Origin: Microthrixaceae bacterium
Lineage (GTDB): Bacteria; Actinomycetota; Acidimicrobiia; Acidimicrobiales; Microtrichaceae
DNA length: 64,000 nucleotides
Reading direction: 5' to 3'
Assembly: GCA_023957975.1 (NCBI GenBank)
Contig: JAMLGM010000003.1
Location: 12,024-76,023, forward strand
Shown: one piece after another, positions 1,780 through 19,003 of the stretch
Position numbering within the stretch: the stretch's first letter is position 1
Layout: each line of letters begins with the position of its first letter
Translations under genes and position numbers: made by a program
The notes under the pieces: generated by a model
The model's database searches: none
Told to the model about the DNA's origin: nothing
The model's input: only the letters and a program-made list of their open reading frames with translations

Positions 1780-2791
1780 CGAGTCCTCGGTTGATCACGA
1801 TGTCGCCGCTGTCTTCAAGGGTGCGGATGACCTTGACGACCTCGGTGCGGGCGAGCGCTACCTCGGCGGCGCGAACGCCTCGGAGCAGGTCGATCTCCTC
1901 CATCAGGTTCTCGGCAGCACGAGAGCTCATGTTCTTCAAGACCTTGGTCTTGGTGGTCTCATCGGCTCCCTTGAGTGCGACGGCGAGACCGCGGGTGTCG
2001 ACCTGGCGCAGGATCTGCTGGACCGCCCGATCGTCGAGGGTGACGATGTCTTCGAACGTGAACAGCTTGGCCCGGACCTCGTCGGCCAATTCGGGATCGA
2101 TCTGTTCGAGCTCCGCGAGCACGACCCGCTCGGTGGCCTTGTCGGAGCGGGTCAACAACGCGATCAAGCCCTCGGCGCCGCCGACCCGTTCTTCTGCGAG
2201 CTCGGCAAGCAGCGTCTGAGCGCGGTCGTGGAGCCGGTGTTCGATGGCGTCGATGGCGGCAGGATTGGTTCGTTCCATCGTCGCGACGCGGATGCCGAGG
2301 TCGCGCTGGGCTTCCTCATCGAACCCGGCGAGGACCCGGGCGGCGCGTTCAGGGCGCAGGTGGGCCAGCACGACGGCGACCGTCTGAGGATGTTCGTCGG
2401 CGAGCATCGACACGAGGGTCTCGATCTCGAACGGTGCGAGAAACCCGAACCGGCCGTGTTCGACCCGTCCGAACAGTTCCGCAGCGGCGATCGGACCGAG
2501 CGACAACTCGATGAGCTCGCGGACATCCTGGTGGGTGACCCTGACGTCGCCGCGTTGGCGTTCCGCGGTGCGAGCGAAGTCATCGATCACCCCGTCGATC
2601 GTCGGAGCGGTCACATAGCCGACCCGCTCAAGTTCTCGGGCGACCGCCGCGACGTCTTCGGTCGACAGCTCGCGCAACACGCGGGCAGCTCGTTGCCGGT
2701 CGAGGCTCATGATGAACACGGCGACCTTCTGCACGCCGCTGAGTCCGTCGATTCCATCAAAGCCGTCGACGGACGGCATCGTTGCGGTCAT
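1763..2791 (-). CDS. fliG: Flagellar motor switch protein FliG
   Basis: The translation carries FliG hallmarks (GVQKVAVFIMSL, EDIVTLDDRAVQQILRQVD, LAVALKGADE, MSSRAAENLMEEI). Start chosen at ATG 2791, which forms an ATGA overlap with the fliF stop. The ORF track extends to 2821. Confidence 0.9.
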   Translation of the reverse strand: MTATMPSVDGFDGIDGLSGVQKVAVFIMSLDRQRAARVLRELSTEDVAAVARELERVGYVTAPTIDGVIDDFARTAERQRGDVRVTHQDVRELIELSLGPIAAAELFGRVEHGRFGFLAPFEIETLVSMLADEHPQTVAVVLAHLRPERAARVLAGFDEEAQRDLGIRVATMERTNPAAIDAIEHRLHDRAQTLLAELAEERVGGAEGLIALLTRSDKATERVVLAELEQIDPELADEVRAKLFTFEDIVTLDDRAVQQILRQVDTRGLAVALKGADETTKTKVLKNMSSRAAENLMEEIDLLRGVRAAEVALARTEVVKVIRTLEDSGDIVINRGLDDVVD

Positions 2792-4476
2792 CGCGGGGTC
2801 TCGCGTCGATCGCCAAGCCACGACCGCAACAGGTCGGCGACTTCGTCGGGTTGGTTGTCGATGAGGTCACCGAGCGCCTCGCGTCGGCCGGTCGGATCGA
2901 TCGACCGCGAGGTCGCCTCGCTGGAGGCGGCGTCGAGCGCGGCGCTTACGGCGACCAACTCGCCGGGGCCGTCCTCGCGGTCGCTGCCCCCATATCCCTC
3001 GACGAGGTCCCGCTCGCTGGTGGGGAGCTCGCGGGTCATCATCTCGATCGGTTCGAGCGTCAGGTTCTTGCGCTTGCGGCGGCGCAGCACGAAGCCGATT
3101 ACGGCCACAGCAGCAACCCCGGCGACGGCGTACATCCAGATCGGGGTGGCGGTCGGTTCGTCGCCGTTCTCGCGAAATGCCAGTTCCTCGCGCATCGATT
3201 CCGTTGCGGTCTGGTCGAGCTTGAGCCGCGAGATCGCAACGGTGTCGCCACGGTCCGGATCCAAGCCGGCCGCGGCGGAAACCAGCGTCTGAACTTCGGT
3301 GATCTGGTCGGGGCCGATCGCATCCTCGTCGAGGACGACGGCGACCGACAGGCGATTGATCGCCCCGGGGGCCTTGGAGGTCTCCTCGACGACCTTGTCG
3401 ACGGCGTTGTTCACCTGCCGTTCGTCGAGTTGGTACCCTCCGGAGCCGTCGGTCGGGGAGTTGGTCCCTTCGGCCGAACCCTCGGTCCCGAGGACTCCGG
3501 CGGCATTGTCGCCAGCCCCGGAGCCCGAGTAGTTCTCGCTCCTCGTCGATTCGTTGATCGCCAGCGCCTGGCCAGGCACGATCGTCGACGGTGGTGCGTA
3601 GGACTCCGACACCGACTTCGATGAGTCGAAGTCCAGGTCGGCGGCGACGGTGACGCTGGCATGGCCCTCGCCGACGATCTTGGCCAGCATCGACTCGATC
3701 GATCCGGCAAGCGAGGTTTCGTACGCCGCGGTCGTTTCCTGGTTGTCGACCCCGCCACCCCCGGTGCCCACCGGCCCGTTGGGGGAGGCGAGCACGCGCC
3801 CCTCGGCGTCGGTGACGGTGACGTCGCTCGGATCGAGGTTCTCAATCGCGCCCGAAACGAGGTTCACGACCGCTTGGACCTGGCTGCCAGACAACGAGGA
3901 ATTACCTTCGGTCTTGACCATGACCGAACCGGTCGCGGCCTGGTGGTCGAGTGCGAACGTGCTGTTCTTCGGGAGCGCGAGATGGACGGTTGCGGCGACG
4001 ACGCCGTCGATCGACTCGATCGTGGTGGCGAGTTCGCCTTCCATCGCCCGTTGGTAGTTGACGTGTTGACTGAACTCGGAGCTGGTCAGGTCGGTGTTGT
4101 CGAGGATCCCGTATCCGACCTTGCCGGAACCCGGGAGGTCGACCGAGGCGACGTCGATCCGCGTCTGATACACACGATCCTTTGGCACCATGATGGTCGA
4201 GCCTCCGCCGGCGAGTTCGTACGGAACGCCGAGCGAGTCGAGTTGTGCGGTGATGGCCTGGGCGTCCTCGGCGACCAGGTTGGTCATGAGCGGCGCGAAC
4301 TCGGTCTTGTTGCCGAAGACGCTCATCGCCAGGACGCCGATCACCACCAGCGCCGCCGCGGCGCCCATCATGGCGCGCTGTCCCGGGGAGAACGCGGCCA
4401 GCGAGTCGGTGGCCTTGGCGTTCCAACCGGCAAGCCCTGCGGAGCTTTCGGCGTTGGGATTCATCGTGTCGACCAT
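2788..4476 (-). CDS. fliF: Flagellar M-ring protein FliF
   Basis: 562 aa. N-terminal TM segment, then LVAEDAQAITAQLDSLGVPYEL, YQRAMEGELATTIESIDGV, a second TM near the C-terminus and an acidic tail. Sits in the fliE-fliF-fliG order. Confidence 0.9.
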   Translation of the reverse strand: MVDTMNPNAESSAGLAGWNAKATDSLAAFSPGQRAMMGAAAALVVIGVLAMSVFGNKTEFAPLMTNLVAEDAQAITAQLDSLGVPYELAGGGSTIMVPKDRVYQTRIDVASVDLPGSGKVGYGILDNTDLTSSEFSQHVNYQRAMEGELATTIESIDGVVAATVHLALPKNSTFALDHQAATGSVMVKTEGNSSLSGSQVQAVVNLVSGAIENLDPSDVTVTDAEGRVLASPNGPVGTGGGGVDNQETTAAYETSLAGSIESMLAKIVGEGHASVTVAADLDFDSSKSVSESYAPPSTIVPGQALAINESTRSENYSGSGAGDNAAGVLGTEGSAEGTNSPTDGSGGYQLDERQVNNAVDKVVEETSKAPGAINRLSVAVVLDEDAIGPDQITEVQTLVSAAAGLDPDRGDTVAISRLKLDQTATESMREELAFRENGDEPTATPIWMYAVAGVAAVAVIGFVLRRRKRKNLTLEPIEMMTRELPTSERDLVEGYGGSDREDGPGELVAVSAALDAASSEATSRSIDPTGRREALGDLIDNQPDEVADLLRSWLGDRRETPR

Positions 4477-4481
4477 CTACC

Positions 4482-4802
4482 TCAGACCTGCATTCTCATG
4501 ATCTCGTTGAACGCCTCGAGCGCCTTGTTGCGCACGGCGACGGTCAACTGGGTGCTGAGCTGCGCTTCGGTCGCAGCCATCATGTAGTCCTCGATGCTCT
4601 GCAGATTGCCGGTCGCAGCGTCGCGGGCGAGCTGGTCGGCGTAGAGGTGCTGATCGTTGAGGCTGTTCAGCGCGCCGGAGATCGCGGTGTCGAACCCCTC
4701 GGCCCCGCTGGAGCGGGTCGACAGGTTCGAGTCGGTCGGGGTCGCGACCGGGGCGACCGTGGCACTGGACAGTCCGGCGGAGACGGGGCTGATGATCGCC
4801 AC
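4482..4802 (-). CDS. fliE: Flagellar hook-basal body complex protein FliE
   Basis: 106 aa, position between flgC and fliF, C-terminal LTVAVRNKALEAFNEIMRMQV typical of FliE. Confidence 0.8.
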   Translation of the reverse strand: MAIISPVSAGLSSATVAPVATPTDSNLSTRSSGAEGFDTAISGALNSLNDQHLYADQLARDAATGNLQSIEDYMMAATEAQLSTQLTVAVRNKALEAFNEIMRMQV

Positions 4803-4804
4803 GG

Positions 4805-5236
4805 CTACTTACCGATCTCGAGTGCTCGAAGGTACGAATCGCGAGCCCGCTCGAACACCGAGGTGTTCACCTGGTACGCGCGTTGGGCGATGATCATGTT
4901 GGTCATCTGTTCGCCGAGGTCGACGTTCGGCAAACGCACGAGACCCTCTTCGTTGGCGAGTGGATGATCGGGCTGATACGCGAGGATCCCCTCCGGGTCG
5001 TTCTCGACGATGCGACTCACCGAGGTCCCCCGACCGATCTGGCCGCGCACACCGTGGCCGGAGCCAGGTCGCGATTGTGCGACGACGTACTTCGACTCGT
5101 ACGCGTTCTCGTCCATTCCACGCACGGTCGACACGTTGGCGACGTTGTCGGCGATGGCGTCGAGCCACACCTTGTAGGTGCTCATCCCCGAGGCCGCGAC
5201 CCCGAGTGCGGAAAACATTGCGCCCATCGCCATCAC
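4805..5236 (-). CDS. flgC: Flagellar basal-body rod protein FlgC
   Basis: 143 aa with SGMSTYKVWLDAIADNVANVST and IIAQRAYQVNTSVF rod-protein motifs. ATGA overlap with the flgB stop. Confidence 0.9.
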   Translation of the reverse strand: MMAMGAMFSALGVAASGMSTYKVWLDAIADNVANVSTVRGMDENAYESKYVVAQSRPGSGHGVRGQIGRGTSVSRIVENDPEGILAYQPDHPLANEEGLVRLPNVDLGEQMTNMIIAQRAYQVNTSVFERARDSYLRALEIGK

Positions 5237-5577
5237 CCCGTAATCACGGTGCGCAACAGGCCGTACTTGGCGTTCGCAGCGGAGATCAGAAGCTGCTGGC
5301 TCAACGCCGTCTCGGTGAGCGAGGTGATCTCGCGTTCGAGTTGCACGTTGTTGCCGTTGGGCAGCGGAGCGTCGTTGGTGAAGGTGGTCGTGGCCCGCGC
5401 CGTCTGCGGAGTGCCGGCGTCGACCGCCCGGGTGAGCTGCGACTCGAAATCGACGCGTCGGGCGCGGTAGCCGGGAGTCTCGACGTTCGCGATGGCGTCC
5501 TCGTGTTGGGACTTGCGCAGGTTCAGGCCACGCAGCCCCGATCCGAGGGTTTCGAGGGTGAGGTCGCTGATCATCAC
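5233..5577 (-). CDS. flgB: Flagellar basal-body rod protein FlgB
   Basis: 114 aa, HEDAIANVETPGYRARRVDFE motif, first gene of the flgB-fliI run. Confidence 0.85.
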   Translation of the reverse strand: MMISDLTLETLGSGLRGLNLRKSQHEDAIANVETPGYRARRVDFESQLTRAVDAGTPQTARATTTFTNDAPLPNGNNVQLEREITSLTETALSQQLLISAANAKYGLLRTVITG

Positions 5578-5707: not shown

Positions 5708-5734
5708 CTATCGGCACCCCGAAGCGCAATCTGA
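5708..5734 (-). promoter_or_regulatory. Putative sigma-28 (FliA/WhiG)-type promoter of the flgB-fliI operon
   Basis: The minus strand reads CCTCAG-15 nt-GCCGATAG (TCAG = 5734..5731, GCCGATAG = 5715..5708), about 130 nt upstream of the flgB ATG. Same geometry as three other sites in the window. Confidence 0.45.
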
Positions 5735-5843
5735 GGAGATCAGCGCGGATCTGTAGAAAAACCCGACGGTCGACCCATGATCGACCATCGGTGGTGGGTC
5801 TCGCGGCCCAGCGGTCGGCGAGATGAGGTTGGCCAGCGTACTT

Positions 5844-6185
5844 CTAGGCCGAGGTGTCGAGTCGGCTGGGTTCCGGGCTGGAGTGGGCCCAGCGCCGCGG
5901 TCCGCGAGACGTGGTCCCGCGCAGTTCGGAGTCGATCTCGCAGAGTCGTGAACGGCACAAGGTGGTGACGTGCCCGATGCGTTCGACGACCAGGTTCGCG
6001 AGTTCGGTGAGCTCCTCGGGGATGGGGCCGAGCTCCACCGGAAGACGCTGCGGCGAGACCGACTCGTAGTCTCCGGCATCGATGTCGGAGAGGATCGCCG
6101 AGAGCTCGCGCCGCCACGATGCCGCCGCTTCAGTCGGATCGTTCGTCGGCACGGTCACGGGTCCCACCTCGCACTTCACCGTCAT
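5844..6185 (-). CDS. Hypothetical protein translationally coupled to fliS (possible flagellar chaperone or accessory protein)
   Basis: Start taken at the internal ATG 6185 (MTVKCEVGPV...), which forms an ATGA overlap with the fliS stop at 6182-6184. 113 aa, no family recognised. Confidence 0.4.
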   Translation of the reverse strand: MTVKCEVGPVTVPTNDPTEAAASWRRELSAILSDIDAGDYESVSPQRLPVELGPIPEELTELANLVVERIGHVTTLCRSRLCEIDSELRGTTSRGPRRWAHSSPEPSRLDTSA

Positions 6186-6703
6186 CGCTGCGCGGCAGGG
6201 CCGCCGGCCATCACCGAGTTCGCGGCCTGCTCCCAGGCGTCGCAGAGCGGTTCGATGTGCGATCGGCACTCGCGAACCGTTGCAGCGTCTTTGGTCATGT
6301 TGGCGTCGAGGAGTCGGCGGTACAGGTACTCATAGAGTGCGCCGAGTTGTTCGGCCGCAGCCCAGGCGTCGCGATCGAGCGCCTCGTCGAGGGCCAACAC
6401 GATGTCCTGGGCGTGCTGGAGATTCCGGCTCGTCGCCTCGAAGTCTCGATCCGCGATGCCCGCTTCGGCCGCGACGAGGTCCCGACACAGCCGTTGATAC
6501 AACGCCACCAGCAGTTGCGGTTTGGACATCGTCGCCTGGCCATCGCGCGCGTAGCGGGCCCGCGCCGCAGCCACCTTCGTCGTGCTGCTTGGCGGAGTCG
6601 GAAGTGGCGCAGCAGCACGCTCGAGCGGCAACAGCGTTTGCGATGTGTGGCCAGCGGTGGGCAGTGCGGGAGCGGTCGGGTGCTGGACGGGGGCGAGAGG
6701 CAT
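6182..6703 (-). CDS. fliS: Flagellar export chaperone FliS (with a P/A/T-rich N-terminal extension)
   Basis: The core RYARDGQATMSKPQLLVALYQRLCRDLVAAEAGI...HAQDIVLALDEAL matches the FliS helical-bundle pattern. Located downstream of fliD. Confidence 0.8.
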   Translation of the reverse strand: MPLAPVQHPTAPALPTAGHTSQTLLPLERAAAPLPTPPSSTTKVAAARARYARDGQATMSKPQLLVALYQRLCRDLVAAEAGIADRDFEATSRNLQHAQDIVLALDEALDRDAWAAAEQLGALYEYLYRRLLDANMTKDAATVRECRSHIEPLCDAWEQAANSVMAGGPAAQR

Positions 6704-6729
6704 TCGGTCGAGTCCTAGGGCGTGCAGGG

Positions 6730-8634
6730 CTACTTGGAATTGTTCGAATTGAGCCCAGCGGTCATCGACGAGACCATCGAGCCGGTTGCGTTCATCGAGC
6801 TGAGCAACGTCTCGAGCGCCGCGAACTGCGCCTTGAGGCGAAGCTCGCGGGCGTCGAGCCGGATCTGGTATTGGTCGATCGACTTCTGGAAGTTGGTGAT
6901 CTGAGTTTCACGGGAATTCTTCGCCTTGGCGAGGTAGCCGAACTCCTTGTCGACGGCGTTGTTCACCGCGCCGAGCAGGCGTTGGGCGATACCCGGCTCG
7001 TAGGTGAGGTCGAATGTGCCCGCTTGAGTGGTGCGTACCGACAGACCGCTGAGTTGCCCATTCGTGGTGGCCAGCGACAACGTCTGGCCGACGCCGGTGG
7101 CGCTTTGGCCGTTGATGGTTCCGATGACGTCGGTTCCCGATGCCGAGGTGTAGGAGGGGCTGCCGGCGATGTCATCCCAGCTGACATCGAATGACGTGCC
7201 GCTTCCGTAGGCGTTCGAACGGATCTCGATGCCGCCGCCGCTGGCAGTCGCCTGGAGTGCGAAACCGCCCACTTGGAGCTTCGTGTTCAGCGAACCCGCC
7301 AGCGTGGCCGCATCGGCGGGTCCGTTTGTCAGATCGATGTCGTTGCCGGCGCCGTAGCCGACCGCCATGACGATTTCGACCCCGTTCAGTTTGACCCGGA
7401 TGGTCGCCGGGTTGGTGATCGGAACCTGTCCCACCATGCCCAGCTGGCTCGCCTGGGTGGCGGCCTGGGTGACGACCACCTGGTGGCTGCCCGCTGCGAG
7501 GAGCGCTCCGGCGGACGTGAGCGACACGGCGCTGGATGCAGATCCGCCGCTGGTGGCCGAGGAACCCTGGACGAACAGGCGCTCGACCGCGGTCGGGTCG
7601 GCGTTGTAGGCGGAGAGAAACTTGGCCTCGTCGAACTGGACGGCGCCGTTGCGGTCGACGGAGATTCCGGCGGCCCCCGCCGAGCCCAGCGGAGATTGAG
7701 CGACGGCGTCGGTCAACGCTCGCGTGAGCGCCTGGGTGGCCTGGCGCGCAGCGGCATCGCCCGACAGCGTGGATCCGCGGGAGGTGGCGGCGTTGAACGC
7801 CGTCTGCTTCTTGATCTCGGCCAGGGCGTCGTTGACCGAAGTGGCGAGCGCCTTGACCCGCTCGGCCAGCGCCTTGCCATCGCGCTCGACCGAGATGGTG
7901 ACCGCTTCGTTCGACACCGCCTTCGCGGTGATCGTGATGCCCGAGACGAGCTCGGAGAAGGTGTTGGTGCTCGAGGTCACGCTATAGGCGTTGGCGCCTT
8001 CGCCGATCGTGAGCTGGGCGTCTCTGCCTTGGGACGTGACGGCTGCACCGTAGGCGGCGTCGAGCCCTGCGAGATCGAAGGTGGATGCCGCCCCGGAGGA
8101 GGCGGAGGACATCTGGAGGCGGAATCCGGATCCGGTGTTGACCACGGTGGCACGCACCCCGAGCCCAGCGTTGTTGACCGCCGAGGCGATCTCGTCGATC
8201 GATCCGGAACCCACCGAAAGGCTGGTCGTGGTGCCTGCGACGGTGAGCGAGATGGTGCTCGAACCTCCGGTGGTCATCGACGTGGTTCGATCGGCCACCT
8301 GGGCGCTGGTGAGGGTGTGGGCGGCGGCGAGTTGGGAGACGGTGAAGGTGAGCGACCCTGCCGCGGTCGTCGCTCCGCTGGAGACCTGGGCGGTGGCGAG
8401 GGCGATGTTCGACGAGGTGGTGGCGCTCAACGACCAGTCGTTGGTGCGGTCGAGGTTGTTCGCGGCGGTCGTCACCGCGGTCATTTTGGTCAGGATGGAG
8501 TTGTAGGCGTCGATCGCCGACTGCGCCTTGGCCTGGCGCGCCTCCATCTGGTTGACCGGGATCCGCTCGATCGCCATCAGGCTGGTGATGATTTTGGCGG
8601 TGTCGAGACCGCTGGCCAGACCGTCAATCGCCAT
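6730..8634 (-). CDS. fliD: Flagellar filament cap protein FliD (hook-associated protein 2)
   Basis: 634 aa. N-terminus MAIDGLASGLDTAKIITSLMAIERIPVNQMEARQ and C-terminus QYQIRLDARELRLKAQFAALETLLSSM are typical FliD termini. Confidence 0.85.
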   Translation of the reverse strand: MAIDGLASGLDTAKIITSLMAIERIPVNQMEARQAKAQSAIDAYNSILTKMTAVTTAANNLDRTNDWSLSATTSSNIALATAQVSSGATTAAGSLTFTVSQLAAAHTLTSAQVADRTTSMTTGGSSTISLTVAGTTTSLSVGSGSIDEIASAVNNAGLGVRATVVNTGSGFRLQMSSASSGAASTFDLAGLDAAYGAAVTSQGRDAQLTIGEGANAYSVTSSTNTFSELVSGITITAKAVSNEAVTISVERDGKALAERVKALATSVNDALAEIKKQTAFNAATSRGSTLSGDAAARQATQALTRALTDAVAQSPLGSAGAAGISVDRNGAVQFDEAKFLSAYNADPTAVERLFVQGSSATSGGSASSAVSLTSAGALLAAGSHQVVVTQAATQASQLGMVGQVPITNPATIRVKLNGVEIVMAVGYGAGNDIDLTNGPADAATLAGSLNTKLQVGGFALQATASGGGIEIRSNAYGSGTSFDVSWDDIAGSPSYTSASGTDVIGTINGQSATGVGQTLSLATTNGQLSGLSVRTTQAGTFDLTYEPGIAQRLLGAVNNAVDKEFGYLAKAKNSRETQITNFQKSIDQYQIRLDARELRLKAQFAALETLLSSMNATGSMVSSMTAGLNSNNSK

Positions 8635-8661
8635 GGCGGGCCACCTTTCGTGGGTGAGCGC

Positions 8662-8698
8662 CTACGGGATGCGAGGCACCATGTCTCGCATCCCGTAG
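8662..8698 (-). terminator. Stem-loop between fliC and fliD (terminator or attenuator)
   Basis: Perfect 14-bp inverted repeat ctacgggatgcgag (8662-8675) / ctcgcatcccgtag (8685-8698) with a 9-nt loop, 12 nt after the fliC stop. No U-tract follows. Confidence 0.5.
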
Positions 8699-8709
8699 TG
8701 CTGGTGGGG

Positions 8710-9531
8710 TTACTGCAGGAGGCTGAGCACCGACTGGCTGAGGCTGTTGGCCTGGCCGAGCATGGAGGTTCCGGCCTGCATGAGGACCTGGTTCTTGGTG
8801 AAGTTGGTCATTTCGGAGGCCATGTCGACGTCGCGGATGCGTGACTCCGAGGACACGAGGTTCTCGGTGGTGACCTGCAGGTTGTTGATGACCGATTCGA
8901 AGCGGTTCTGGGTGGCGCCGAGCTTGCCGCGTTCGGTCGACACGGTGGTGATGGCCGTATCGAGTGCGGTGATCGCCGCCGCCGGTCCGCCAGCGGCGGT
9001 GAGGTCGAGGGTGGAAATCGCCAGCGCCCCGGCCCCGGTGCCCATGTTGGCGACTCCGACCGTGATGGTGTCGCCATTGTTGGCGCCGACCTGGAAGACC
9101 CGACCGGTGAAGGTGCCGTCGAGCAGCGCCTGGGAACCGAACTTGGTCTTGGTGGCGATGTCGTTGATCTGGGTCCGCAACTCGGCGAACTCGGCCTGGT
9201 TGGCGGCGATCGCTGCGGTGTCCATGGTGCCGGTGTTGGCGGCGCCGACGGCGAGGTCGCGCATGCGGTTCAGCATGGAGTGGACCTCGGTGAGCGCACC
9301 TTCAGCGGTCTGTGCGACCGAGATGCCGTCTTGGGCGTTGCGGGTGGCCTGCTTGAGTCCGGAGATCTGGGCTCGCAGGTTCTGGGAGATGACCAGGCCT
9401 GCGGCGTCGTCCGCCGCGCGGTTGATGCGGAAACCCGAGGAGAGCTTTTCGAGGCTCTTGCCCATCGAGGTGTTCGTGCTGGACAGGTTGCGCCAGGCGT
9501 TGAAGGCGGCGACGTTGTTGTTGATACGCAT
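8710..9531 (-). CDS. fliC: Flagellin FliC
   Basis: Start set at ATG 9531 (MRINNNVAAFNAWRNLSSTNTSMGKSLEKLSSGFRINRAADDAAGL), preceded by GGAGGA. C-terminus MTNFTKNQVLMQAGTSMLGQANSLSQSVLSLLQ. 273 aa. The ORF-track extension to 9819 is upstream read-through. Confidence 0.95.
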   Translation of the reverse strand: MRINNNVAAFNAWRNLSSTNTSMGKSLEKLSSGFRINRAADDAAGLVISQNLRAQISGLKQATRNAQDGISVAQTAEGALTEVHSMLNRMRDLAVGAANTGTMDTAAIAANQAEFAELRTQINDIATKTKFGSQALLDGTFTGRVFQVGANNGDTITVGVANMGTGAGALAISTLDLTAAGGPAAAITALDTAITTVSTERGKLGATQNRFESVINNLQVTTENLVSSESRIRDVDMASEMTNFTKNQVLMQAGTSMLGQANSLSQSVLSLLQ

Positions 9532-9537
9532 GGTTGT

Positions 9538-9586
9538 CCAATCCTCCGTGATTGGGTGTGGTGGAGCGGCCACGCTCCTCGTGGCC
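9538..9586 (-). promoter_or_regulatory. Two GGA-loop hairpins in the fliC 5' leader (candidate CsrA binding sites, the second covering the SD)
   Basis: The minus strand reads GGCCACG-AGGAG-CGTGGCC (9586..9568) and CCAATC-ACGGAG-GATTGG (9555..9538). The SD GGAGGA lies at 9547..9542, 10 nt before the ATG. Confidence 0.5.
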
Positions 9587-9617
9587 GTTGTCGGCTCGGG
9601 TCGAGTCGGCAGGTGAT

Positions 9618-9644
9618 GTATCGGCCGGCGGCCGCCGGTTCTGA
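9618..9644 (-). promoter_or_regulatory. Putative sigma-28-type promoter of fliC
   Basis: The minus strand reads CTTCAG-15 nt-GCCGATAC (TCAG = 9644..9641, GCCGATAC = 9625..9618), about 85 nt upstream of the fliC ATG. Confidence 0.5.
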
Positions 9645-9745
9645 AGCACTCATCCGAGAAATCGAACGGTTGAGTCGCCCGACCCGGCTGAGGCGACGGT
9701 CGTGGGTCCGACGGCCCTCGCCCGATTGCAGAGGTCGCCGATCGC

Positions 9746-9772
9746 TCAGGTTCTGACCGAGCTGGCCGATAA
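9746..9772 (+). promoter_or_regulatory. Putative sigma-28-type promoter of flgN-flgK-flgL
   Basis: The plus strand reads GCTCAG-15 nt-GCCGATAA (TCAG 9746-9749, GCCGATAA 9765-9772). The -10 ends 7 nt before the flgN ATG at 9780, which implies a leaderless or near-leaderless mRNA. Confidence 0.45.
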
Positions 9773-9779
9773 CGACACC

Positions 9780-10310
9780 ATGACTGTTGCCGACAACACG
9801 ACGACCGACATTGCCGCATCGCTCGACGAGCTGTCGCGCGTGTTGTGGAGACAGCGCGAACTCATCGAGCTGCTCGACTACCGCCTCGAGGTGCAACGGC
9901 TCGTGCTCATGGGCGGCCGACCCGACCACCTCCAGCGTGCACTCGGCGACGTGGAGACGGCGATGGACGAGATCCGCCGATTGGAGCGCAACCGCGACCT
10001 CGTCGTACGCGAATGTGCCGGTCGAATCGGTCTCGCACCAGATGCGACACTGTCGATGCTCAAAGATTCCGTTGCCGAACCGTGGTCCAGTCGACTCGCC
10101 GAGCACCAGAACGCATTGCTGGCGCTCGTGGCGGCGACCGAACGCAACGCTGCGGCCAATCGCGAGATCGCAGCGCAGGGGGCTGCGGAGACCCGAGGGG
10201 TGATCGATGAGATCACCGGCACCCCGTCGTTGTCCGGTTACGGCCCCAACGGAACCCGAAACAGCGGTGGTGGCCTCAGCCGTCCGGCGTTGATCGATCG
10301 GGAGGTTTGA
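9780..10310 (+). CDS. flgN: FlgN-like flagellar export chaperone
   Basis: Start at the internal ATG 9780 (MTVADNTTTDIAASLDELSRVLWRQRELIELLDYRLEVQRLVL). Helical protein of about 176 aa directly upstream of flgK-flgL. Confidence 0.55.
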   Translation: MTVADNTTTDIAASLDELSRVLWRQRELIELLDYRLEVQRLVLMGGRPDHLQRALGDVETAMDEIRRLERNRDLVVRECAGRIGLAPDATLSMLKDSVAEPWSSRLAEHQNALLALVAATERNAAANREIAAQGAAETRGVIDEITGTPSLSGYGPNGTRNSGGGLSRPALIDREV

Positions 10311-10311
10311 G

Positions 10312-11733
10312 ATGTCGACATTCGGCGGACTCAACACGGCGGTCAGCGGGCTCAATGCGCACAAGCGCTCCATCGAGGTCATCGGCCACAACGTCGCCAA
10401 CGTCAACACCGAAGGGTTTTCGCGGCGACAGGTCGTGCTCGAGCCGTCGGTCGGTCTGCGGACCGCGTCGAGGCACAACACGGGATTCTCCTGGTCGAAC
10501 CTCGGGGTGAACATCGCGACGGTTCACCGGGTGCGCGACGCCTTCCTCGACGCTCGCGCCCGTTCGAGCGCGGCCGGATCGTCGGAGGCCAACAAGCTGA
10601 CCGAGGTGCTCGGCACGCTCGAAGCAGCGATGCCCGAACCAGGTGACAACGGGTTGAACACCAAGCTCGCCAACTTCTGGAACGCGTTCTCAGATGCGGC
10701 GAACCAGCCGGGGGCCACCCCTCAACGCACGAGCGTGTTGGCCCAGGGGGAGTCGTTGGCGACCGGGATCCGAAACGCTGCGGAGAGCCTCCAGGTCGCT
10801 CACGACAACTATTCGAGGGAGCTGGGCGATGTGATCGCCGAGGTGAACTCGCTCAGCGATCAGGTGGCAGACCTCAACAGCCAGATTCGACAGTCCACGA
10901 TCTCGGGCATGAACGCGGCGGACATGATGGACCAGCGCGACGTATTGATCGATCGACTTGCCGCGTTGACCGGAGCGACGACACGTCCGGGCGAGTACAA
11001 CCAGACGACCGTGGTACTCGGAGGTAGCACTCTCGTGTCCGGAGAGTTACGCGAACACCTCGCCGTACGCGAGATCGGTCCGCTCAACCCCCCGCTCAAC
11101 AACCTCGACCCGCAGATGACCCAGGTGCAGTGGGCCCGTGACGGTTATGCGGCAGCGTCGCTCGGCGGCACGACCGGCGGCATCGTTGCAGCATTGAACG
11201 ACGTCATTCCGCGCTACATGAATGAACTCGACACCGTCGCTCAGACACTGATCTCCACGGTCAACGCACAACACCAACTCGGCGAGGGCCAAGACGCCGT
11301 CTCCGGCCGGAACTTCTTCGACGTCAGCGGCCCGGGGCCGGTCTCCAAGCGGATCATGTTGAGCTCCGACGTCGCCGGGCAGCCGCAGAACATCGCGTTG
11401 GCGGCATCGGGAGGCGGTGCCCTCGACGGGTCGAACGGGTACGCGCTCGCGGCGCTCATGACCTCCGCTACCGGCGCCAACGCGTCGTATGAATCGATGC
11501 TCGGTCGACTCGGGATCGAGGGGCAGGCCGCCGCTTCCCGGGCGGAGACCCAGGACCAGTTCGCACAACAGACCGAAACCCAACGTACGTCGGTGGCCGG
11601 GGTCAACGTCGATGAGGAGATGACCAACCTCATGATGTCCCAGCGCGCCTATGAGGCATCCGCGCGGATGCTGACCGCCATCGACGAACTGCTCGACGTT
11701 TTGATCAACCGCACCGGCATCGTCGGACGTTAG
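10312..11733 (+). CDS. flgK: Flagellar hook-associated protein 1 FlgK
   Basis: N-terminus MSTFGGLNTAVSGLNAHKRSIEVIGHNVANVNTEGFSRRQV and C-terminus EEMTNLMMSQRAYEASARMLTAIDELL. Confidence 0.9.
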   Translation: MSTFGGLNTAVSGLNAHKRSIEVIGHNVANVNTEGFSRRQVVLEPSVGLRTASRHNTGFSWSNLGVNIATVHRVRDAFLDARARSSAAGSSEANKLTEVLGTLEAAMPEPGDNGLNTKLANFWNAFSDAANQPGATPQRTSVLAQGESLATGIRNAAESLQVAHDNYSRELGDVIAEVNSLSDQVADLNSQIRQSTISGMNAADMMDQRDVLIDRLAALTGATTRPGEYNQTTVVLGGSTLVSGELREHLAVREIGPLNPPLNNLDPQMTQVQWARDGYAAASLGGTTGGIVAALNDVIPRYMNELDTVAQTLISTVNAQHQLGEGQDAVSGRNFFDVSGPGPVSKRIMLSSDVAGQPQNIALAASGGGALDGSNGYALAALMTSATGANASYESMLGRLGIEGQAAASRAETQDQFAQQTETQRTSVAGVNVDEEMTNLMMSQRAYEASARMLTAIDELLDVLINRTGIVGR

Positions 11734-11744
11734 GAGCCCATCTC

Positions 11745-12644
11745 ATGATGACCAGAGTCGCAACCTACGGCGGATCACGGTCGACGTTGGCGAACATCCA
11801 GCGGTCGTTCGTCCGCCTCGACCGCGCCCAGGAACAGGTCGTGACCGGCAAACGTGTTAACCGGGTGTCGGACAACCCGACCGACGGGGTGTCGTCGGTG
11901 ATCAATCGAACCCTGTTGAAGCGCCTCGAGCAATACGAGCGCAACGCAACCGAAGCCGACGCCTGGCTGCTCGCCAACGATTCGGCCCTCGCCGACAGTG
12001 CGACCAGCCTGATCTCGGCTCGCAGCCGACTCGTGCAGGTCGGTGGTGCGCCGGACGCCGTCGCTCGAAAGGCCATCGCCGACGAACTCCGTGCGACGGC
12101 GGAGACGATGATCGGAACGGCGAATGCGACCAAGGCCGGCCGCCAGATCTTCTCGGGAACTGCGGATGTCGCGACCGCGTACGCCCTCGATGGCTCATAT
12201 CTCGGCAACGCGACGCCGGTCACGATTCCGGTGTTCGATTCGATCGCCATCCGGGTCGACCGCACGGGTCCGGAGGTGTTTGGGGTCTACGACGCCGGCG
12301 ACCCCTCGGCGGGCAACATCTTCCAACAGCTTCGGTGGATGGCCGATGAGATCGAGGCGGGCAACGTGGCGGTGGCGGCCTCCGGGCTCGGCACGATCGA
12401 CCACGCGCTCGAACGCCTCGCGACCGCTCAGGTGGAGCTCGGAACACGCCACGCGCAACTCGAATCCATTCAGGCGAACATCGCCGGATCGAAGGTTTCG
12501 ACCACGGCTGCGATCTCCAAGAACGAGGACGTCGATGCCGCCGAGGCGATCATGAACTGGCGCACACGCCAAAGCGCTTATGAGTCGGCGTTGAAGGTCT
12601 CCGCTCAGACGATGCAACAGAGCCTGCTCGACTTCATTCGCTAG
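11745..12644 (+). CDS. flgL: Flagellar hook-associated protein 3 FlgL
   Basis: 299 aa. LDRAQEQVVTGKRVNRVSDNPTDG is a flagellin-N-like motif. C-terminus NWRTRQSAYESALKVSAQTMQQSLLDFI. Confidence 0.85.
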   Translation: MMTRVATYGGSRSTLANIQRSFVRLDRAQEQVVTGKRVNRVSDNPTDGVSSVINRTLLKRLEQYERNATEADAWLLANDSALADSATSLISARSRLVQVGGAPDAVARKAIADELRATAETMIGTANATKAGRQIFSGTADVATAYALDGSYLGNATPVTIPVFDSIAIRVDRTGPEVFGVYDAGDPSAGNIFQQLRWMADEIEAGNVAVAASGLGTIDHALERLATAQVELGTRHAQLESIQANIAGSKVSTTAAISKNEDVDAAEAIMNWRTRQSAYESALKVSAQTMQQSLLDFIR

Positions 12645-12652
12645 GCGACTGC

Positions 12653-12679
12653 TCATCTCTGCGGCGGCGCCGCCGATAG
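12653..12679 (+). promoter_or_regulatory. Putative sigma-28-type promoter in front of fliR-flhB-flhA
   Basis: The plus strand reads GCTCAT-15 nt-GCCGATAG (TCAT 12653-12656, GCCGATAG 12672-12679), in the 83-nt gap between the flgL stop and the fliR GTG. Confidence 0.4.
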
Positions 12680-12727
12680 TGAGGTGATGTCCGAGACGGT
12701 CGACTGCGCATCGTCGGCGAGGCCGCC

Positions 12728-13495
12728 GTGCGGTTGAGCCTCGACCCTCAGTTCTTCCTCGCGTTCATGTACGCCATGATCCGCTGCAGCGCGTGGTTGT
12801 TTCTCGCACCGCCGTTGCGCGGCAACGCCCCGGTCATGGTCCGGTCGGGGCTCGCGATGTCGCTCGGGCTGGTGATGGCGCCACGGCTCCTCAACGGCCC
12901 AGAGCCACTCGAGACCGATCTCGGTTCGATCCTGGCCGGGACGCTGCACAACGCCGTGATCGGCCTGGTGCTGGCGTTCGTCGTGTTCATGTTGTTCAGC
13001 GCCGTCTCCGCGGCGGGATCGATGATCGATACCTTCTCGACCCTGAGCTCCGCCCAGCTGTTCGACCCGATGCAGGCCGCGGCCGCCGGCCCGGTCAGTC
13101 GGCTCTACCAGATCCTCGGCACCGCGATGCTGTTCGCGACCAACGGCCACCTCATCTTGTTCGAGGGACTAGCGCGCACCTTCGATCTGTCGCCGGTGGA
13201 CGGATTGAGCTTCGAGCGGATCGGGGCCGTGGTCACCTCGGACCTTCAGACCTTCCTCCTCGCCGCGATGCAGATCGCCGCACCGATTCTGATCGCGTTG
13301 TTCCTCACCGAGATCCTCCTGGGTCTCGCATCGCGGGCCGCACCGAAACTCAACATCATGGCCATCGGCTTCGGGGTGAAGACGCTGGTGACGTTCATGC
13401 TGTTGGGGGCCGCGCTGCCGCTGGTGGCCTACTTCACCGGGCAACTCCTCCAGAAGTCGCTGGGCTCGATGAGCGCGATCGTGGGCGGAGGCTGA
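12728..13495 (+). CDS. fliR: Flagellar export gate protein FliR
   Basis: 255-aa polytopic membrane protein, FLAFMYAMIRCSAWLFLAPPL and later TM segments typical of FliR. GTG start with GAGG 5 nt upstream. Confidence 0.8.
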   Translation: MRLSLDPQFFLAFMYAMIRCSAWLFLAPPLRGNAPVMVRSGLAMSLGLVMAPRLLNGPEPLETDLGSILAGTLHNAVIGLVLAFVVFMLFSAVSAAGSMIDTFSTLSSAQLFDPMQAAAAGPVSRLYQILGTAMLFATNGHLILFEGLARTFDLSPVDGLSFERIGAVVTSDLQTFLLAAMQIAAPILIALFLTEILLGLASRAAPKLNIMAIGFGVKTLVTFMLLGAALPLVAYFTGQLLQKSLGSMSAIVGGG

Positions 13496-13496
13496 C

Positions 13497-14678
13497 GTGG
13501 CGGGAGGTGACAAGCATTCAAAGACCGAGGCCCCGACACAGAAGCGCAAGAAGGAGGCCCGCAAGGACGGACAGGTCATCCGCTCGGAGGACTTTGTCAC
13601 CTGGGCTTCGGTGCTGGTTGCCACGATGGTCATGCCCATGCTGGTCCGCAACGGTTCCAACGCGGCACGAGATGCGCTGGCGATGATGTTGCAGGTGGCC
13701 CGCCGCCCTGATGAAGGGGTGCTTGTGAGTTCGGTGGGCGAGGTCATGACCTCGACGCTGGGCGCCATCATGCCGACGGTGGTGATCATGATGGTCATCG
13801 CCGTCGTCGGCAACATGGCCCAGGTCGGCCTCTTGCTCACCGGTAAACCGTTGAGGCCGAAATTCGATCGTCTGAATCCGCTCAAAGGGTTCAAACGAAT
13901 GTTCTCCGTGCAAAGCGTCTGGGGAACGATCACCGCGCTGCTGAAGCTCACGGTGATCGTCGCGGTTGCCTACACGACGCTGCGTTCGTCGATTGCGGAG
14001 TTGGTCGCAGCATCTCCCCGGTCGATCTCCTCGCTGCTCGCCGAGGCTGCCTCGATGTCGATCTCCCTGGTTCGCACGATCGCCATCGCCGCGCTCCTGC
14101 TCGCAGCGTTCGACTACGCGTTCCAACGTTGGAAGCAGTACCGCGACATGCGGATGACGAAACAGGAGATCAAACAGGAGAGCCGGGATTCCGAAGGCGA
14201 TCCGCACGTGAAGGGTCGACAGCGCCAGCTGCGCATGCAGGCGTCGCGCAACCGAATGTTGGCCGCCATCAAAGATGCGAACGTCGTCATCACCAACCCG
14301 ACCCACGTGGCGATCGCCATCGAATACAAGGCGTCCTACGGCGTCCCTCGCGTCGTGGCACGAGGGGTCGACGCGTTGGCGATGAAGATCAAAGCGGAGG
14401 CGGCGACCCACAACATTCCTCAGGTCGAGTCGCGGCCCTTGGCCCGAACGCTCTACGCGCTGTGTCGTGTGGGAGAGGAGATCCCGCCGGAGTTGTATCA
14501 GGCCGTTGCGACGGTGTTGGCGTTCATCCAGCGCCTTTCCGATGCGCAGAGGACCTACGTATCGACCTTCGACCTTCACGTGCCGGACTCCTGGAGCGCA
14601 GACGGCGTGACGCCCGAGCGCGTCTCGCCGACGCGTCGCAAGATGTTGGAGCGACAGGCGGCCAAACATGCGACGTGA
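13497..14678 (+). CDS. flhB: Flagellar export protein FlhB
   Basis: N-terminus GDKHSKTEAPTQKRKKEARKDGQVIRSED, four TM segments, NPTH autocleavage motif (VVITNPTHVAIAIEY). Confidence 0.9.
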   Translation: MAGGDKHSKTEAPTQKRKKEARKDGQVIRSEDFVTWASVLVATMVMPMLVRNGSNAARDALAMMLQVARRPDEGVLVSSVGEVMTSTLGAIMPTVVIMMVIAVVGNMAQVGLLLTGKPLRPKFDRLNPLKGFKRMFSVQSVWGTITALLKLTVIVAVAYTTLRSSIAELVAASPRSISSLLAEAASMSISLVRTIAIAALLLAAFDYAFQRWKQYRDMRMTKQEIKQESRDSEGDPHVKGRQRQLRMQASRNRMLAAIKDANVVITNPTHVAIAIEYKASYGVPRVVARGVDALAMKIKAEAATHNIPQVESRPLARTLYALCRVGEEIPPELYQAVATVLAFIQRLSDAQRTYVSTFDLHVPDSWSADGVTPERVSPTRRKMLERQAAKHAT

Positions 14679-14807
14679 GCGGGTCCCTGGGTCGGGTGGC
14701 CCAGGAAATCATCGCGACCGCCTCAAGAATCCCGGCGAGTTGCCGAAGGGAAAGGACCTTCATGACGAAGGCGATGACCCGGCACGGAGGCCGTTGCGCG
14801 GACGCAG

Positions 14808-16901
14808 ATGCGTCCGATTCGTTTGGCACGCACGGGAGCATTCGTGAAGGAAAACAAGCTCGGCCTCGGCGCAGCAGCCTTCCCGTTCGCCGTCATCGCC
14901 GTCGTGGCGCTCATGGTGCTGCCGATTCCGACGCATCTGCTCGACGTGTTGTTGGCCTTCAACCTGGGCCTCGCCATGTTGATGTTGTTGGCGTCGTTGA
15001 ACGTCAAGCGGGCGCTCGACTTCTCGGCGTTCCCATCGCTGCTGCTCATCGCCACCCTGTTCCGCCTCGGCCTGAACGTCAGCACCTCACGGCTGATCCT
15101 CTCGCACGGGGATGCAGGCGAGGTCATCGAAGCATTCGGCAACTTCGTCGTCGGTGGCTCACTCGTCGTCGGCCTCGTCGTGTTCTTCATCCTGGTGATC
15201 ATCCAGTTCGTCGTCATCACCAACGGTGCCACCCGCGTTGCCGAGGTCGCCGCCCGGTTCACCCTCGACGCGATGCCCGGCAAGCAGATGGCGATCGACG
15301 CCGACCTCAACGCCGGGGTCATCGACGACGACGAGGCGCGGCGACGGCGCGAGGATGTCGCCGGAGAGTCCGACTTCTACGGCGCGATGGACGGTGCGTC
15401 GAAGTTCGTCAAGGGCGACGCCATCGCCGCGGTGATCATCACCGCGGTCAACCTCATCGGCGGACTGCTGGTAGGTGTTCTCCAAAAGGGCATGGACGTC
15501 GGCGATGCGGTGAGCACCTACTCGTTGCTCACCGTCGGCGACGGCCTTGTGTCGCAGATCCCTGCACTGTTGGTGTCGATTTCCTCGGGTCTGATCATCA
15601 CCCGAGCAGCGAGCAGCGGCGACCTCGGTAGCGATGTGATGGCGCAGTTCGCCCGTCAGCATCAGGCGTTGCTGATCGGTGGCGTCTCCCTCATCGCCAT
15701 GGGCTTGGTGCCCGGGCTGCCGACCCTGCCGTTCTTCGTCGTCGGAGGGCTGCTGGTTGTTCTGTCTCGCAGGATGTCCGCCGCTGCCGATGCATCGGAC
15801 CGGGCGGCCGCCGAGGCTCCGGCCCACCTCGAAGAGGAGGCCGATCCGAACTCGCCGGCCGAACTGACCCGGGCACTGCGCGTTGAACCGATCGGGCTGG
15901 AGCTGTCGATCGACCTGGTCGACCTCGTCGATCCCGGGTCGAACGGCGACCTGTTGGACCGGGTGCAGGCGCTTCGTCGAAAGCTCGTCGAGGAACTGGG
16001 CATCGTCATTCCGCCGGTGAGGACGCGTGACAACGTCGAGCTCGACCTCGGGACCTACGTGATACGGATTCACGGGGTGGAAGTGGCGCGAGGGATCGCC
16101 CCTGCGGGCAAGCTTCTCGTGATCGCCGACGACCTCAGCGTGTTCCCCGGTATGGAAGTGCTCGAACCCGTCTTCGGGCTTCCATCGAAGTGGGTGGGGC
16201 CAGAGCTGCGGTCGATGGCCGAAGCGATGGGCGCCACCGTCATCGACCGTTCGTCGGTGATCACGACCCATCTGGCCGAGGTGGCTCGCGAGCACGCCCC
16301 CGAGCTGTTGAGCCGCCAAGATGTCAAGACCCTCGTCGACCTGGTCCGCTCGACCGACAGCGCCGTGGTCGAGGACCTGATGGCCGCGGGGGTGAGCCTC
16401 GCCGAGACCCAGCAGGTACTCATGAGTCTGCTCGCCGAACAGGTTCCGATCCGGGATCTGTCGCGGATCCTCGAGGTCATCAGCGAGCGTTCGCGTCTGA
16501 CCCGCGATACCGAGTTGTTGGTCGAGGCCGTGCGTCAATCGCTGGGCCCGGCGATCTGCGCGTCGAACGCCCGCAACGGTCACCTCGCGGTCATCACCCT
16601 CGACCCGCTCATCGAACAGGGGTTGCTGGGGTCGCTGCAACGCAACGAGACAGGGTCGTTCCTCGCCCTCGACCCCGACACCGCGTCGCGGGTCGGCCAA
16701 GCGATCATGAGCCAGCTTCGCAGTGCCGAACAACTCGGCCATGAACCGGTGCTCGTCTGTGCGCCGAGTCTACGGCCCGCCATGCGAAGCTTCCTCGCCC
16801 GGACCATTCCTCACATGCCGGTGTTGTCCTATGAAGAACTCGCCGATCACCTCACGATCGACGCGCTCGGCTCGGTGACCCTGGAGGCCAGCAATGCATG
16901 A
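14808..16901 (+). CDS. flhA: Flagellar export protein FlhA
   Basis: 697 aa. ATRVAEVAARFTLDAMPGKQMAIDADL and GAMDGASKFVKGDAIA motifs, followed by a large cytoplasmic C-domain. Confidence 0.95.
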   Translation: MRPIRLARTGAFVKENKLGLGAAAFPFAVIAVVALMVLPIPTHLLDVLLAFNLGLAMLMLLASLNVKRALDFSAFPSLLLIATLFRLGLNVSTSRLILSHGDAGEVIEAFGNFVVGGSLVVGLVVFFILVIIQFVVITNGATRVAEVAARFTLDAMPGKQMAIDADLNAGVIDDDEARRRREDVAGESDFYGAMDGASKFVKGDAIAAVIITAVNLIGGLLVGVLQKGMDVGDAVSTYSLLTVGDGLVSQIPALLVSISSGLIITRAASSGDLGSDVMAQFARQHQALLIGGVSLIAMGLVPGLPTLPFFVVGGLLVVLSRRMSAAADASDRAAAEAPAHLEEEADPNSPAELTRALRVEPIGLELSIDLVDLVDPGSNGDLLDRVQALRRKLVEELGIVIPPVRTRDNVELDLGTYVIRIHGVEVARGIAPAGKLLVIADDLSVFPGMEVLEPVFGLPSKWVGPELRSMAEAMGATVIDRSSVITTHLAEVAREHAPELLSRQDVKTLVDLVRSTDSAVVEDLMAAGVSLAETQQVLMSLLAEQVPIRDLSRILEVISERSRLTRDTELLVEAVRQSLGPAICASNARNGHLAVITLDPLIEQGLLGSLQRNETGSFLALDPDTASRVGQAIMSQLRSAEQLGHEPVLVCAPSLRPAMRSFLARTIPHMPVLSYEELADHLTIDALGSVTLEASNA

Positions 16902-18348: not shown

Positions 18349-18352
18349 TGTC

Positions 18353-18778: not shown

Positions 18779-19003
18779 ATGCTGGTTCTGTCACGTCGGA
18801 CGAACGAATCGATCATCGTCAACGGCAACATCACGATCACGGTGTTGGAGATCCGCGGCGACCACATACGCATCGGGATTGATGCCCCGCGCGAGATCTC
18901 GGTTCATCGCGAAGAGATCCACGCCGAGTTAGCCCGCGCCAACAAGGCAGCGACCGGCTCTCGCGCCGCCGACGTCGCCCGTCTTCCCCGGCCAGGAGTC
19001 TGA
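18779..19003 (+). CDS. csrA: Carbon storage regulator / translational repressor CsrA
   Basis: MLVLSRRTNESIIVNGNITITVLEIRGDHIRIGIDAPREISVHREEIH is the CsrA signature. The ATG directly abuts the fliW TAG. Confidence 0.9.
   Translation: MLVLSRRTNESIIVNGNITITVLEIRGDHIRIGIDAPREISVHREEIHAELARANKAATGSRAADVARLPRPGV

Follow-up and report, generated by a model that had tools for sequence, protein, structure and literature searches.

Predicted CTCA-type sigma-28-family promoters precede early and late flagellar operons in a Microthrixaceae bacterium

The flagellar promoters of a Microthrixaceae bacterium were analysed in a 64,000-nucleotide stretch of its genome (hereafter the window), which is contig JAMLGM010000003.1 of GenBank assembly GCA_023957975.1, positions 12024-76023 (C22:12024-76023). 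Four sites in the window and a fifth outside it, all of the form (C/T)TCA-N16-GCCGATA, are very probably actinobacterial CTCA-type promoters of the sigma-28 family (FliA/WhiG) that form a regulon. They span the whole flagellar cluster and serve early and late genes, so one promoter type, and not the tiers that lead from FlhDC to FliA/FlgM, would organise its transcription. The locus shows every sequence-level feature of this promoter class; the CTCA -35 and the one-promoter-type layout are thus already known, and the locus adds a new example to a kind of system described before. New are the details: a sigma gene missing from the cluster, two unlinked sigma-28 paralogues, a sigma class (class A) that also occurs in relatives without detected flagellar genes, and a fliW-csrA tier. 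The assembly (3.6 Mb, 28 contigs, 98.8% complete) was compared with 40 relatives, none of the same genus, among which fliC was matched in nine and flhA in 11. Coordinates with the prefixes C1, C10, C12, C22 and C23 refer to contigs of this genome, codes of the form G0xx to genomes of relatives, and coordinates without a prefix to the window, where gene identities are Pfam matches.

Promoters of the flagellar operons

The pattern TCAK-N15-GCCGATA was searched in the window and its matches were read directly. Exactly four were found, at 5734..5709 (-), 9644..9619 (-), 9746..9771 (+) and 12653..12678 (+), each with a spacer of 15 nt. The expectation from 100 dinucleotide shuffles was 0.02 matches, and none of the shuffles reached four. 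An initial annotation of the window had placed four sites with an exact 15-nt spacer before the flgB, fliC, flgN and fliR operons, and both their positions and their flanks (CCTCAG...GCCGATAG, CTTCAG...GCCGATAC, GCTCAG...GCCGATAA and GCTCAT...GCCGATAG, respectively) were confirmed. All four are intergenic, and each faces a flagellar operon on the coding strand, less than 200 bp from the start codon. A fifth strong flagellar site, CTCAT-N15-GCCGATAG at C22:4185-4211 (-), was located outside the window, 8 nt before fliM. Counted from the final A of GCCGATA, the first base of the start codon is at +132, +88, +9 and +50 for the four window sites (P1 to P4) and at +8 for fliM.

The -35 element is CTCA in four of the five flagellar sites and TTCA at fliC, and its distance to GCCGA is 16 nt in all five; TCAK-N15-GCCGATA and YTCA-N16-GCCGATA name the same register. 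The CGA core is present in 5/5, and the base that follows GCCGATA is G, C, A and G at P1 to P4 and G at the fliM site. The initial annotation had read the -10 as sigma-28-type, which is supported by the anatomy and position of the sites, by genome-wide enrichment and by conservation across genera. It had also described the -35 as CTCA-like and not TAAA. This was correct, though CTCA-N16-17-GCCGA is the published actinobacterial WhiG1/FliA consensus and the element is no oddity.

P1 (CTCAG-N15-GCCGATAG, 5708..5735, minus strand) stands about 130 nt 5' of the flgB GTG at 5577 and is the predicted promoter of the flgB-flgC-fliE-fliF-fliG-fliH-fliI operon. These early genes occupy 2..5577 (-), with flgB at 5233-5577 and fliI open at the window edge, and the operon continues beyond the left edge towards fliL. 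An intrinsic terminator with a 13-bp stem and a T-tract (5763..5791, -) ends the preceding fliC-fliD-fliS-ORF operon about 30 nt before the P1 -35; because it lies immediately 5' of P1, P1 is expected to open an independent transcription unit. P2 (TTCAG-N15-GCCGATAC, 9618..9645, -) is the predicted fliC promoter and precedes a late operon at 5844..9531 (-), in which Pfam and the listing of open reading frames (ORFs) give fliC (8710-9531), fliD (6730-8634), fliS (6182-6703) and one further ORF.

On the plus strand, P3 (CTCAG-N15-GCCGATAA, 9745..9772) precedes flgN (9780-10310), flgK (10312-11733) and flgL (11745-12644), together 9780..12644, and the flgN ATG at 9780 is 8 nt past GCCGATA. P4 (CTCAT-N15-GCCGATAG, 12652..12679, +) begins 8 nt after the flgL stop and lies upstream of the export-gate genes fliR (12728-13495), flhB (13497-14678) and flhA (14808-16901), which extend over 12728..16901 (+). 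Basal-body, export-gate, hook-associated and flagellin operons therefore share one promoter type, as had been proposed from the sequence at the outset. A weaker candidate for an internal promoter, CTCAAG-N14-GCCGAAG at 14722..14748 (+), was seen in the flhB-flhA gap. It is not significant alone; relatives carry CTCA-N16-GCCGATG at flhA or shortly upstream of it.

In the proposed mechanism, a holoenzyme with a sigma-28-family factor would read P1 to P4 and the fliM site. Region 2 of the sigma factor would read the -10 GCCGATA, and region 4.2 would read the -35 CTCA, the actinobacterial WhiG1/FliA variant of TAAA. Transcription would start about 7-9 nt after GCCGATA, giving a leaderless flgN mRNA and leaders of about 40-130 nt for fliR, fliC and flgB.

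Genome-wide occurrence and regulon

A genome-wide scan with a background estimate, which the initial annotation had proposed, placed the motif far above chance, with a sharp peak at one spacer length. TCAK-N15-GCCGATA has 12 matches in the genome, compared with one at N14 and three at N16. The wider pattern [CT]TCA-N16-GCCGATA has 20 matches, with six at N17 and 0, 1, 3, 0, 0, 1 and 1 at spacers of 12, 13, 14, 15, 18, 19 and 20; the restriction to K at the fourth -35 base is too narrow. The Poisson P is about 1e-20, and a reversed-pattern control gave two matches. The codon-phase spacers N13 and N19 gave one match each, indicating that coding periodicity is not the source of the N16 peak.

About 15-17 of the 20 copies stand shortly upstream of ORFs on the correct strand. 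At nine copies (flgN, fliM, a peptidase, a kinase, a cyclase, a giant protein and three others) the start codon follows GCCGATA by 7-10 nt. This is the distance of a sigma-28 start site, so the nine mRNAs are predicted to be leaderless, and the tight distances between motif and start codon are evidence that the motif positions transcription starts.

The fliM site belongs to a minus-strand cluster upstream of the window, in which fliK, flgD, flgE, flbD, motA, motB and fliL are followed by the fliM promoter and fliM-fliN-fliO-fliP; a weaker candidate lies before flbD-motA (C22:6811-6837). About ten non-flagellar genes are also preceded by the motif. They include a sigma-28-family gene and genes for a GAF-GGDEF diguanylate cyclase, a GAF-HisKA_3 kinase, a type IV prepilin peptidase, a DUF4388 protein, a TadE-like protein (N17 spacing), a sigma-70-family factor and a 2439-aa surface protein. 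These identities are by Pfam, except for the sigma-28 paralogue, the TadE-like protein (sequence only) and the surface protein. The gene for the predicted surface protein (C23:134585-141935, -) has CTCAA-N15-GCCGATAG with the ATG at +8, and its mRNA is predicted to be leaderless. Two further copies, at C10:9201 and C1:455646, are doubtful. The analysis offers testable predictions, namely five strong promoters, a regulon of about 15 sites, several leaderless mRNAs and a CsrA-type flagellin leader.

Two candidate sites, C23:18104-18130 and C12:175893-175920 (the latter upstream of the WhiG orthologue described below), were removed from the regulon, both being the coding XerC/XerD motif. At the DNA level this motif, T-H-(L/M)-L-D-x-G-A-D, yields a CTCA-N16-GCCGAT match that is perfect or nearly so; it is a recurrent false positive, found also in G019.

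Conservation in relatives

The order flgB... / fliS-fliD-fliC / flgN-flgK-flgL is the same in G012, G007, G022 and G021 as in this genome. In relatives the fliC-flgN intergenic DNA is otherwise diverged, and both promoter elements are kept. A counterpart of P3, (C/T)TCA(G/T)-N15/16-G(C/T)CGAT, is separated from the flgN ATG by 6-9 nt in six other genera, and a counterpart of P2, CTCA-N16/17-(G/T/A)CCGA(T/C), is found upstream of fliC in six other genera. P1 has a counterpart, CTCAT-N15-CTCCGAT, before flgB in two other genera (G012 and G007). The sigma genes encoded in the flagellar clusters of relatives are also preceded by the motif. The shared fliC, flgN and flgB sites indicate that the promoter type, and its use for early and late genes, are family-wide.

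The strict pattern [CT]TCA-N16-[GC]CCGA[TA]A had no match at the fliC loci of relatives, where direct reading showed the conserved motif: their -10 closes with GCCGAT(G/C/T), and some sites have a spacer longer by one base. In this genome position seven of the -10 is A in 5/5 sites, versus 1/20 in relatives (Fisher P = 1e-4), and the pattern that has 20 matches here is commonest in this genome (0-13 in relatives, with a spacer control of about one per genome). The idea that the uniform GCCGATA reflects re-tuning after loss of the cluster sigma gene was not supported, since G001, which also lacks a sigma gene by flgL, has GCCGATG/GCCGATC.

P4 differs from the other sites in its setting. In G023 and G005, fliP-fliR-flhB-flhA are colinear and no such site precedes fliR. 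Here, fliP is at the far end of the minus-strand operon, about 24 kb from fliR, which follows flgL on the plus strand, and P4 occupies the 83-nt flgL|fliR junction, which was not seen in the relatives examined. This arrangement suggests that an inversion or rearrangement separated fliR-flhB-flhA from their former operon and that P4 sits at the new junction and supplies them.

Candidate sigma factors

Sigma-28-family genes were called with the cut-off of the TIGR02479 FliA_WhiG model and then by matches to PDB chains. Two genes of the genome exceed the cut-off (273 and 204 bits), and both match PDB WhiG and FliA chains. The initial annotation had noted that neither fliA nor flgM lies in the window. 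This held, and it could be extended: the genome-wide model search found no sigma-28-family gene on the contig that carries the window, and FlgM (PF04316) had no match in the genome at E <= 1.

The first gene (C12:176039-176833, +) lies between xerC and rpsB-tsf, in a neighbourhood that is conserved. Its product matches the Streptomyces WhiG chain 6PFV_A with 315 bits and 60% identity and, judged by sequence, is a WhiG orthologue of the WhiG2 type; WhiG orthologues occur in nearly all genomes of the relatives. An RsiG homologue is encoded at C12:331147-331794 (+). It matches PDB 6PFJ_T (E = 4e-16) and has both ExxxSxxRxxx(Q/H)xxxD motifs for binding cyclic di-GMP (c-di-GMP), with H replacing Q in the second. 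The two components of the WhiG2-RsiG c-di-GMP switch, a WhiG orthologue and a two-motif RsiG, are thus present at the level of sequence. A CTCAG-N15-GCCGATG element overlaps the annotated rsiG ATG.

The second gene, class A (C1:217709-218599), is more divergent, with 143 bits to WhiG, and its start is preceded at 142 nt by TTCAG-N15-GCCGATAG. About 30 genomes contain orthologues of class A, with 60-81% identity. The sigma gene that adjoins or lies near flgL inside the flagellar clusters of relatives belongs to another class, class B, whose members matched class A with 38-48% identity in the search of the relatives. When the proteins were compared, identity of class A was 39-47% with the cluster sigmas and 35-37% with WhiG, and classes A and B are nearer to each other than to WhiG. 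A wider search for related loci with class A returned only distant matches of at most 39% identity.

Class B was not found in this 98.8%-complete assembly, in which fliR-flhB-flhA stand at its usual position after flgL. G001 likewise has no sigma gene after flgL. The missing class B of G008 and G023 is uninformative, because both assemblies also lack flgK. In region 4.2, classes A and B have a common helix, Q-(M/L/I)-(R/K)-x-(E/D), in place of the Q-I-H-T-K of WhiG. On the analogy of region 4.2 in sigma-70, this helix would be the reader of the -35, fitting a common preference of classes A and B for CTCA.

Two sigma-28-like elements were recognised upstream of the class A gene (C1:217540-217700, +), with G007, G008, G009, G010, G013 and G018 as the relatives compared. 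The distal element, TTCAGG-N14-GCCGATA, is also found upstream of the orthologues in G008, G007, G009 and G013. The proximal one, CTCAAGT(T/C)C, is separated from xCCGATA by 17-18 nt, lies nearer the gene and is conserved across genera. The pair might reflect self-activation together with input from a second sigma factor.

The likeliest reader of the flagellar promoters would be the unlinked class A factor, since the motif precedes its own gene and its recognition helix is shared with the cluster sigmas of relatives. We give this assignment about an even chance, with the WhiG orthologue, acting alone or jointly, as the main alternative.

Several points weigh against these readings. At least three of the 20 genome-wide matches are coding coincidences (at the gyrB start codon, in the XerD active-site motif and as an antisense intragenic match). 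A scan of window positions 5400-13000 for the sigma-70 consensus gave no match; the result carries little weight, since the housekeeping promoters of actinobacteria are a poor fit to the E. coli consensus, and it leaves room for additional promoters. At least 17 relatives that bear class A have no detected flhA or fliC, and class A, kept in such genomes, is therefore not a dedicated flagellar sigma factor. In this genome class A and a WhiG2 orthologue are both candidate readers, and WhiG1 and WhiG2 homologues recognise similar promoters (Denis et al., PMC13595943).

A broader scenario can be proposed tentatively, and we regard it as possible but rather doubtful. The cluster sigma would have been lost, and a self-activating class A, found throughout the family and placed below the WhiG-RsiG-c-di-GMP switch, would now run the flagella together with the pilus, cyclase, kinase and sigma genes; P4 would have arisen at the flgL|fliR junction after the rearrangement. 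If true, it would be a worked example of sigma-factor hand-over and promoter gain inside a conserved machine.

Order of expression and alternative explanations

The initial annotation had suggested a flat, single-sigma programme. One promoter type was indeed found. A single sigma factor was not, as the genome has two sigma-28-family genes and lacks the cluster sigma of its relatives. The flatness likewise stands for the promoter type and not beyond it: the fliW-csrA genes and the fliC leader, an A/T-rich tract, the candidate internal promoters and the elements upstream of class A leave room for ordering.

Two features of the enterobacterial cascade are absent here. The early operons have no promoter class of their own, the flgB, fliM and fliR operons sharing the motif with the fliC and flgN operons, and FlgM coupling of late transcription to completion of the hook-basal body was not found. 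If assembly is ordered, the ordering would be supplied post-transcriptionally by FliW-CsrA acting on the fliC leader. The fliW (18182-18778) and csrA (18779-19003) genes, identified by the Pfam FliW and CsrA domains, lie just downstream of the cluster (18182..19003, +). The 5' leader predicted for fliC, about 80 nt long (9532..9611, -), is expected to fold into two hairpins with the loops AGGAG and ACGGAGGA, and the motif of the second loop is the Shine-Dalgarno (SD) sequence. A flagellin leader with two GGA sites, one of them over the SD sequence, is the arrangement of CsrA control of flagellin in Bacillus subtilis. Visual inspection of the fliC leaders of relatives showed similar hairpin-loop GGA/SD motifs. 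Adjacent fliW-csrA and a leader with GGA sites, one over the SD sequence, are thus found here at the level of sequence and predicted fold, and FliW-CsrA could provide a late checkpoint that is absent from transcription by a single promoter type.

It is also conceivable, with a chance somewhat below even, that the programme is tiered by other means, in which WhiG, RsiG and c-di-GMP would act on class A and class A on the flagellar operons, with further ordering from FliW-CsrA, promoter strength and internal promoters. Two conserved sigma-28-like elements upstream of class A genes across genera are consistent with such a programme, as are the fliW-csrA genes adjoining the cluster, the two-hairpin GGA architecture of the fliC leader, the A/T-rich tract that every genus examined has 5' of the fliC -35, and the weaker candidate sites before flhA and flbD-motA. 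In Actinoplanes missouriensis, the closest studied system, loss of the export gate left flagellar transcript levels unchanged, which argues against a transcriptional checkpoint (PMC13083903).

We consider it unlikely that the WhiG orthologue (C12:176039-176833) is the main or sole reader, gated by RsiG and c-di-GMP, in which case c-di-GMP would directly control flagellar transcription and class A would play no part. The genome does encode both the WhiG orthologue and the two-motif RsiG homologue, the -10 is the canonical GCCGATA, and a GGDEF gene lies within the regulon. Moreover, WhiG1 and WhiG2 homologues both complement a whiG mutant of S. venezuelae, and their DNA-contact residues are conserved (Denis et al., PMC13595943). 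However, the presence of WhiG2 is weakly correlated with flagellar clusters (r = 0.14, versus 0.84 for WhiG1) in the same study, and the reported WhiG2 -35 is T(A/C)AA whereas TCA(G/T) stands at all five flagellar sites. In region 4.2 the cluster sigmas of relatives, readers of equivalent promoters, also resemble class A and not WhiG.

A reading of the motif as a regulator's operator, or as a similarity due to chance or repeats, is highly improbable. Bipartite motifs may in general bind regulators, and nothing specific favours this reading. Against it, the -10 half carries the signature of sigma-28, the start codon follows at a fixed 7-10 nt in nine genes, which fits transcription starts and not operators, placement upstream of genes is strand-specific, the sequence between the motif halves is not conserved, and the enrichment is far above chance.

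Comparison with known systems

Denis et al. (2026, mSystems, PMC13595943) tied a WhiG1 clade to flagellar clusters, without RsiG, and described WhiG2 as controlled by RsiG and c-di-GMP. In that study 62% of WhiG1 genes lie in or near a flagellar cluster. The merged WhiG consensus has a -35 of xT(C/A)Ax and a -10 of GCCGA, and the preprint of the same paper gives CTCA-N16-17-GCCGAACT as the WhiG1 consensus from A. missouriensis. Several predicted WhiG sites lay inside flagellar clusters, WhiG genes were themselves predicted targets, and diguanylate cyclase and type IV pilus genes were common targets (PMC13595943). The present genome agrees with these regulons in that the consensus fits all sites, several sites lie in the flagellar cluster, the targets include a sigma gene, a cyclase and pilus genes, and a WhiG2 with its RsiG partner exists beside a second clade without RsiG. 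In contrast to those regulons, the cluster copy of the sigma gene is missing here, and class A also occurs in relatives without detected flagellar genes. Acidimicrobiia and Microthrixaceae are not mentioned in that paper.

In A. missouriensis, all 11 flagellar transcription units are on FliA1/FliA2 promoters (PMC13083903; Jang et al. 2016, Hashiguchi et al. 2020, cited there and in PMC13595943), and loss of FliQ leaves flagellar transcript levels unaltered, with no hook-basal-body checkpoint (PMC13083903). The two systems are alike in a CTCA -35 placed 16-17 nt from GCCGA and in a single promoter type for early and late genes. Both also lack FlgM and have more than one sigma-28 paralogue. The lack of a transcriptional checkpoint at the hook-basal body, which is predicted here, would be a further common feature. 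They differ in the -10, which is GCCGATA(G) here and GCCGAACT there, and in the number of units, with five strong ones here (five to seven in all) versus 11. Unlike A. missouriensis, the present organism has no sigma-28-family gene on the flagellar contig and many targets predicted to be leaderless, and it is a unicellular-type, apparently uncultured, metagenome-assembled genome and not a sporangium former. Loss of FlgM has been reported for this actinobacterial lineage (Zhu et al. 2023), and the absence of flgF/G and of FlgM in this genome fits the lineage described there.

The late promoters of enterobacterial and Bacillus FliA/SigD share with the present sites the sigma family, the -10 and the spacing, TCAx-N15-GCCGATA being in register with TAAA-N15-GCCGATAA. 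They differ in the -35, which is TCA(G/T) here and TAAA there. The present sites also serve early genes (rod, MS-ring, C-ring and export gate), with no FlgM and no separate class of early promoter apparent. With the FliW-CsrA switch of B. subtilis the locus shares adjacent fliW/csrA genes by the flagellar cluster and two GGA hairpin loops, the second over the SD sequence, as predicted here. There, the switch sits atop a two-tier SigA/SigD programme with FlgM; here the switch is predicted.

These comparisons leave current understanding in place. They extend to another lineage the recent rule that actinobacterial flagellar clusters have many sigma-28 CTCA promoters of a single type and no FlgM checkpoint. 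The genome should also be useful for studying how sigma-28 specificity is split between paralogues and how c-di-GMP might reach the motility genes of Actinomycetota.

Other features of the flagellar region

Despite a full flagellar cluster, the CheW domain (PF01584), the only chemotaxis domain searched, had no match genome-wide at E <= 0.001. Any motility of the organism may proceed without canonical chemotaxis.

The fliC-flgN intergenic region contains a single A/T-rich tract, which lies 10-25 nt upstream of the fliC -35 (window 9646-9700, -; CGATTTCTCGG). The tracts upstream of fliC in relatives, GAAAGTTCG, GAAAAGTTC and GAAGAAATTCG (loci L008-L014), are of the same kind, and such a tract is present in all genera examined. 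It resembles an UP element and as such would strengthen the flagellin promoter.

The ORF at 5844-6269 (-, longest form), directly after fliS, has no Pfam match, and an internal ATG overlaps the fliS stop. It occupies the place where genes for fliT-like chaperones often sit.

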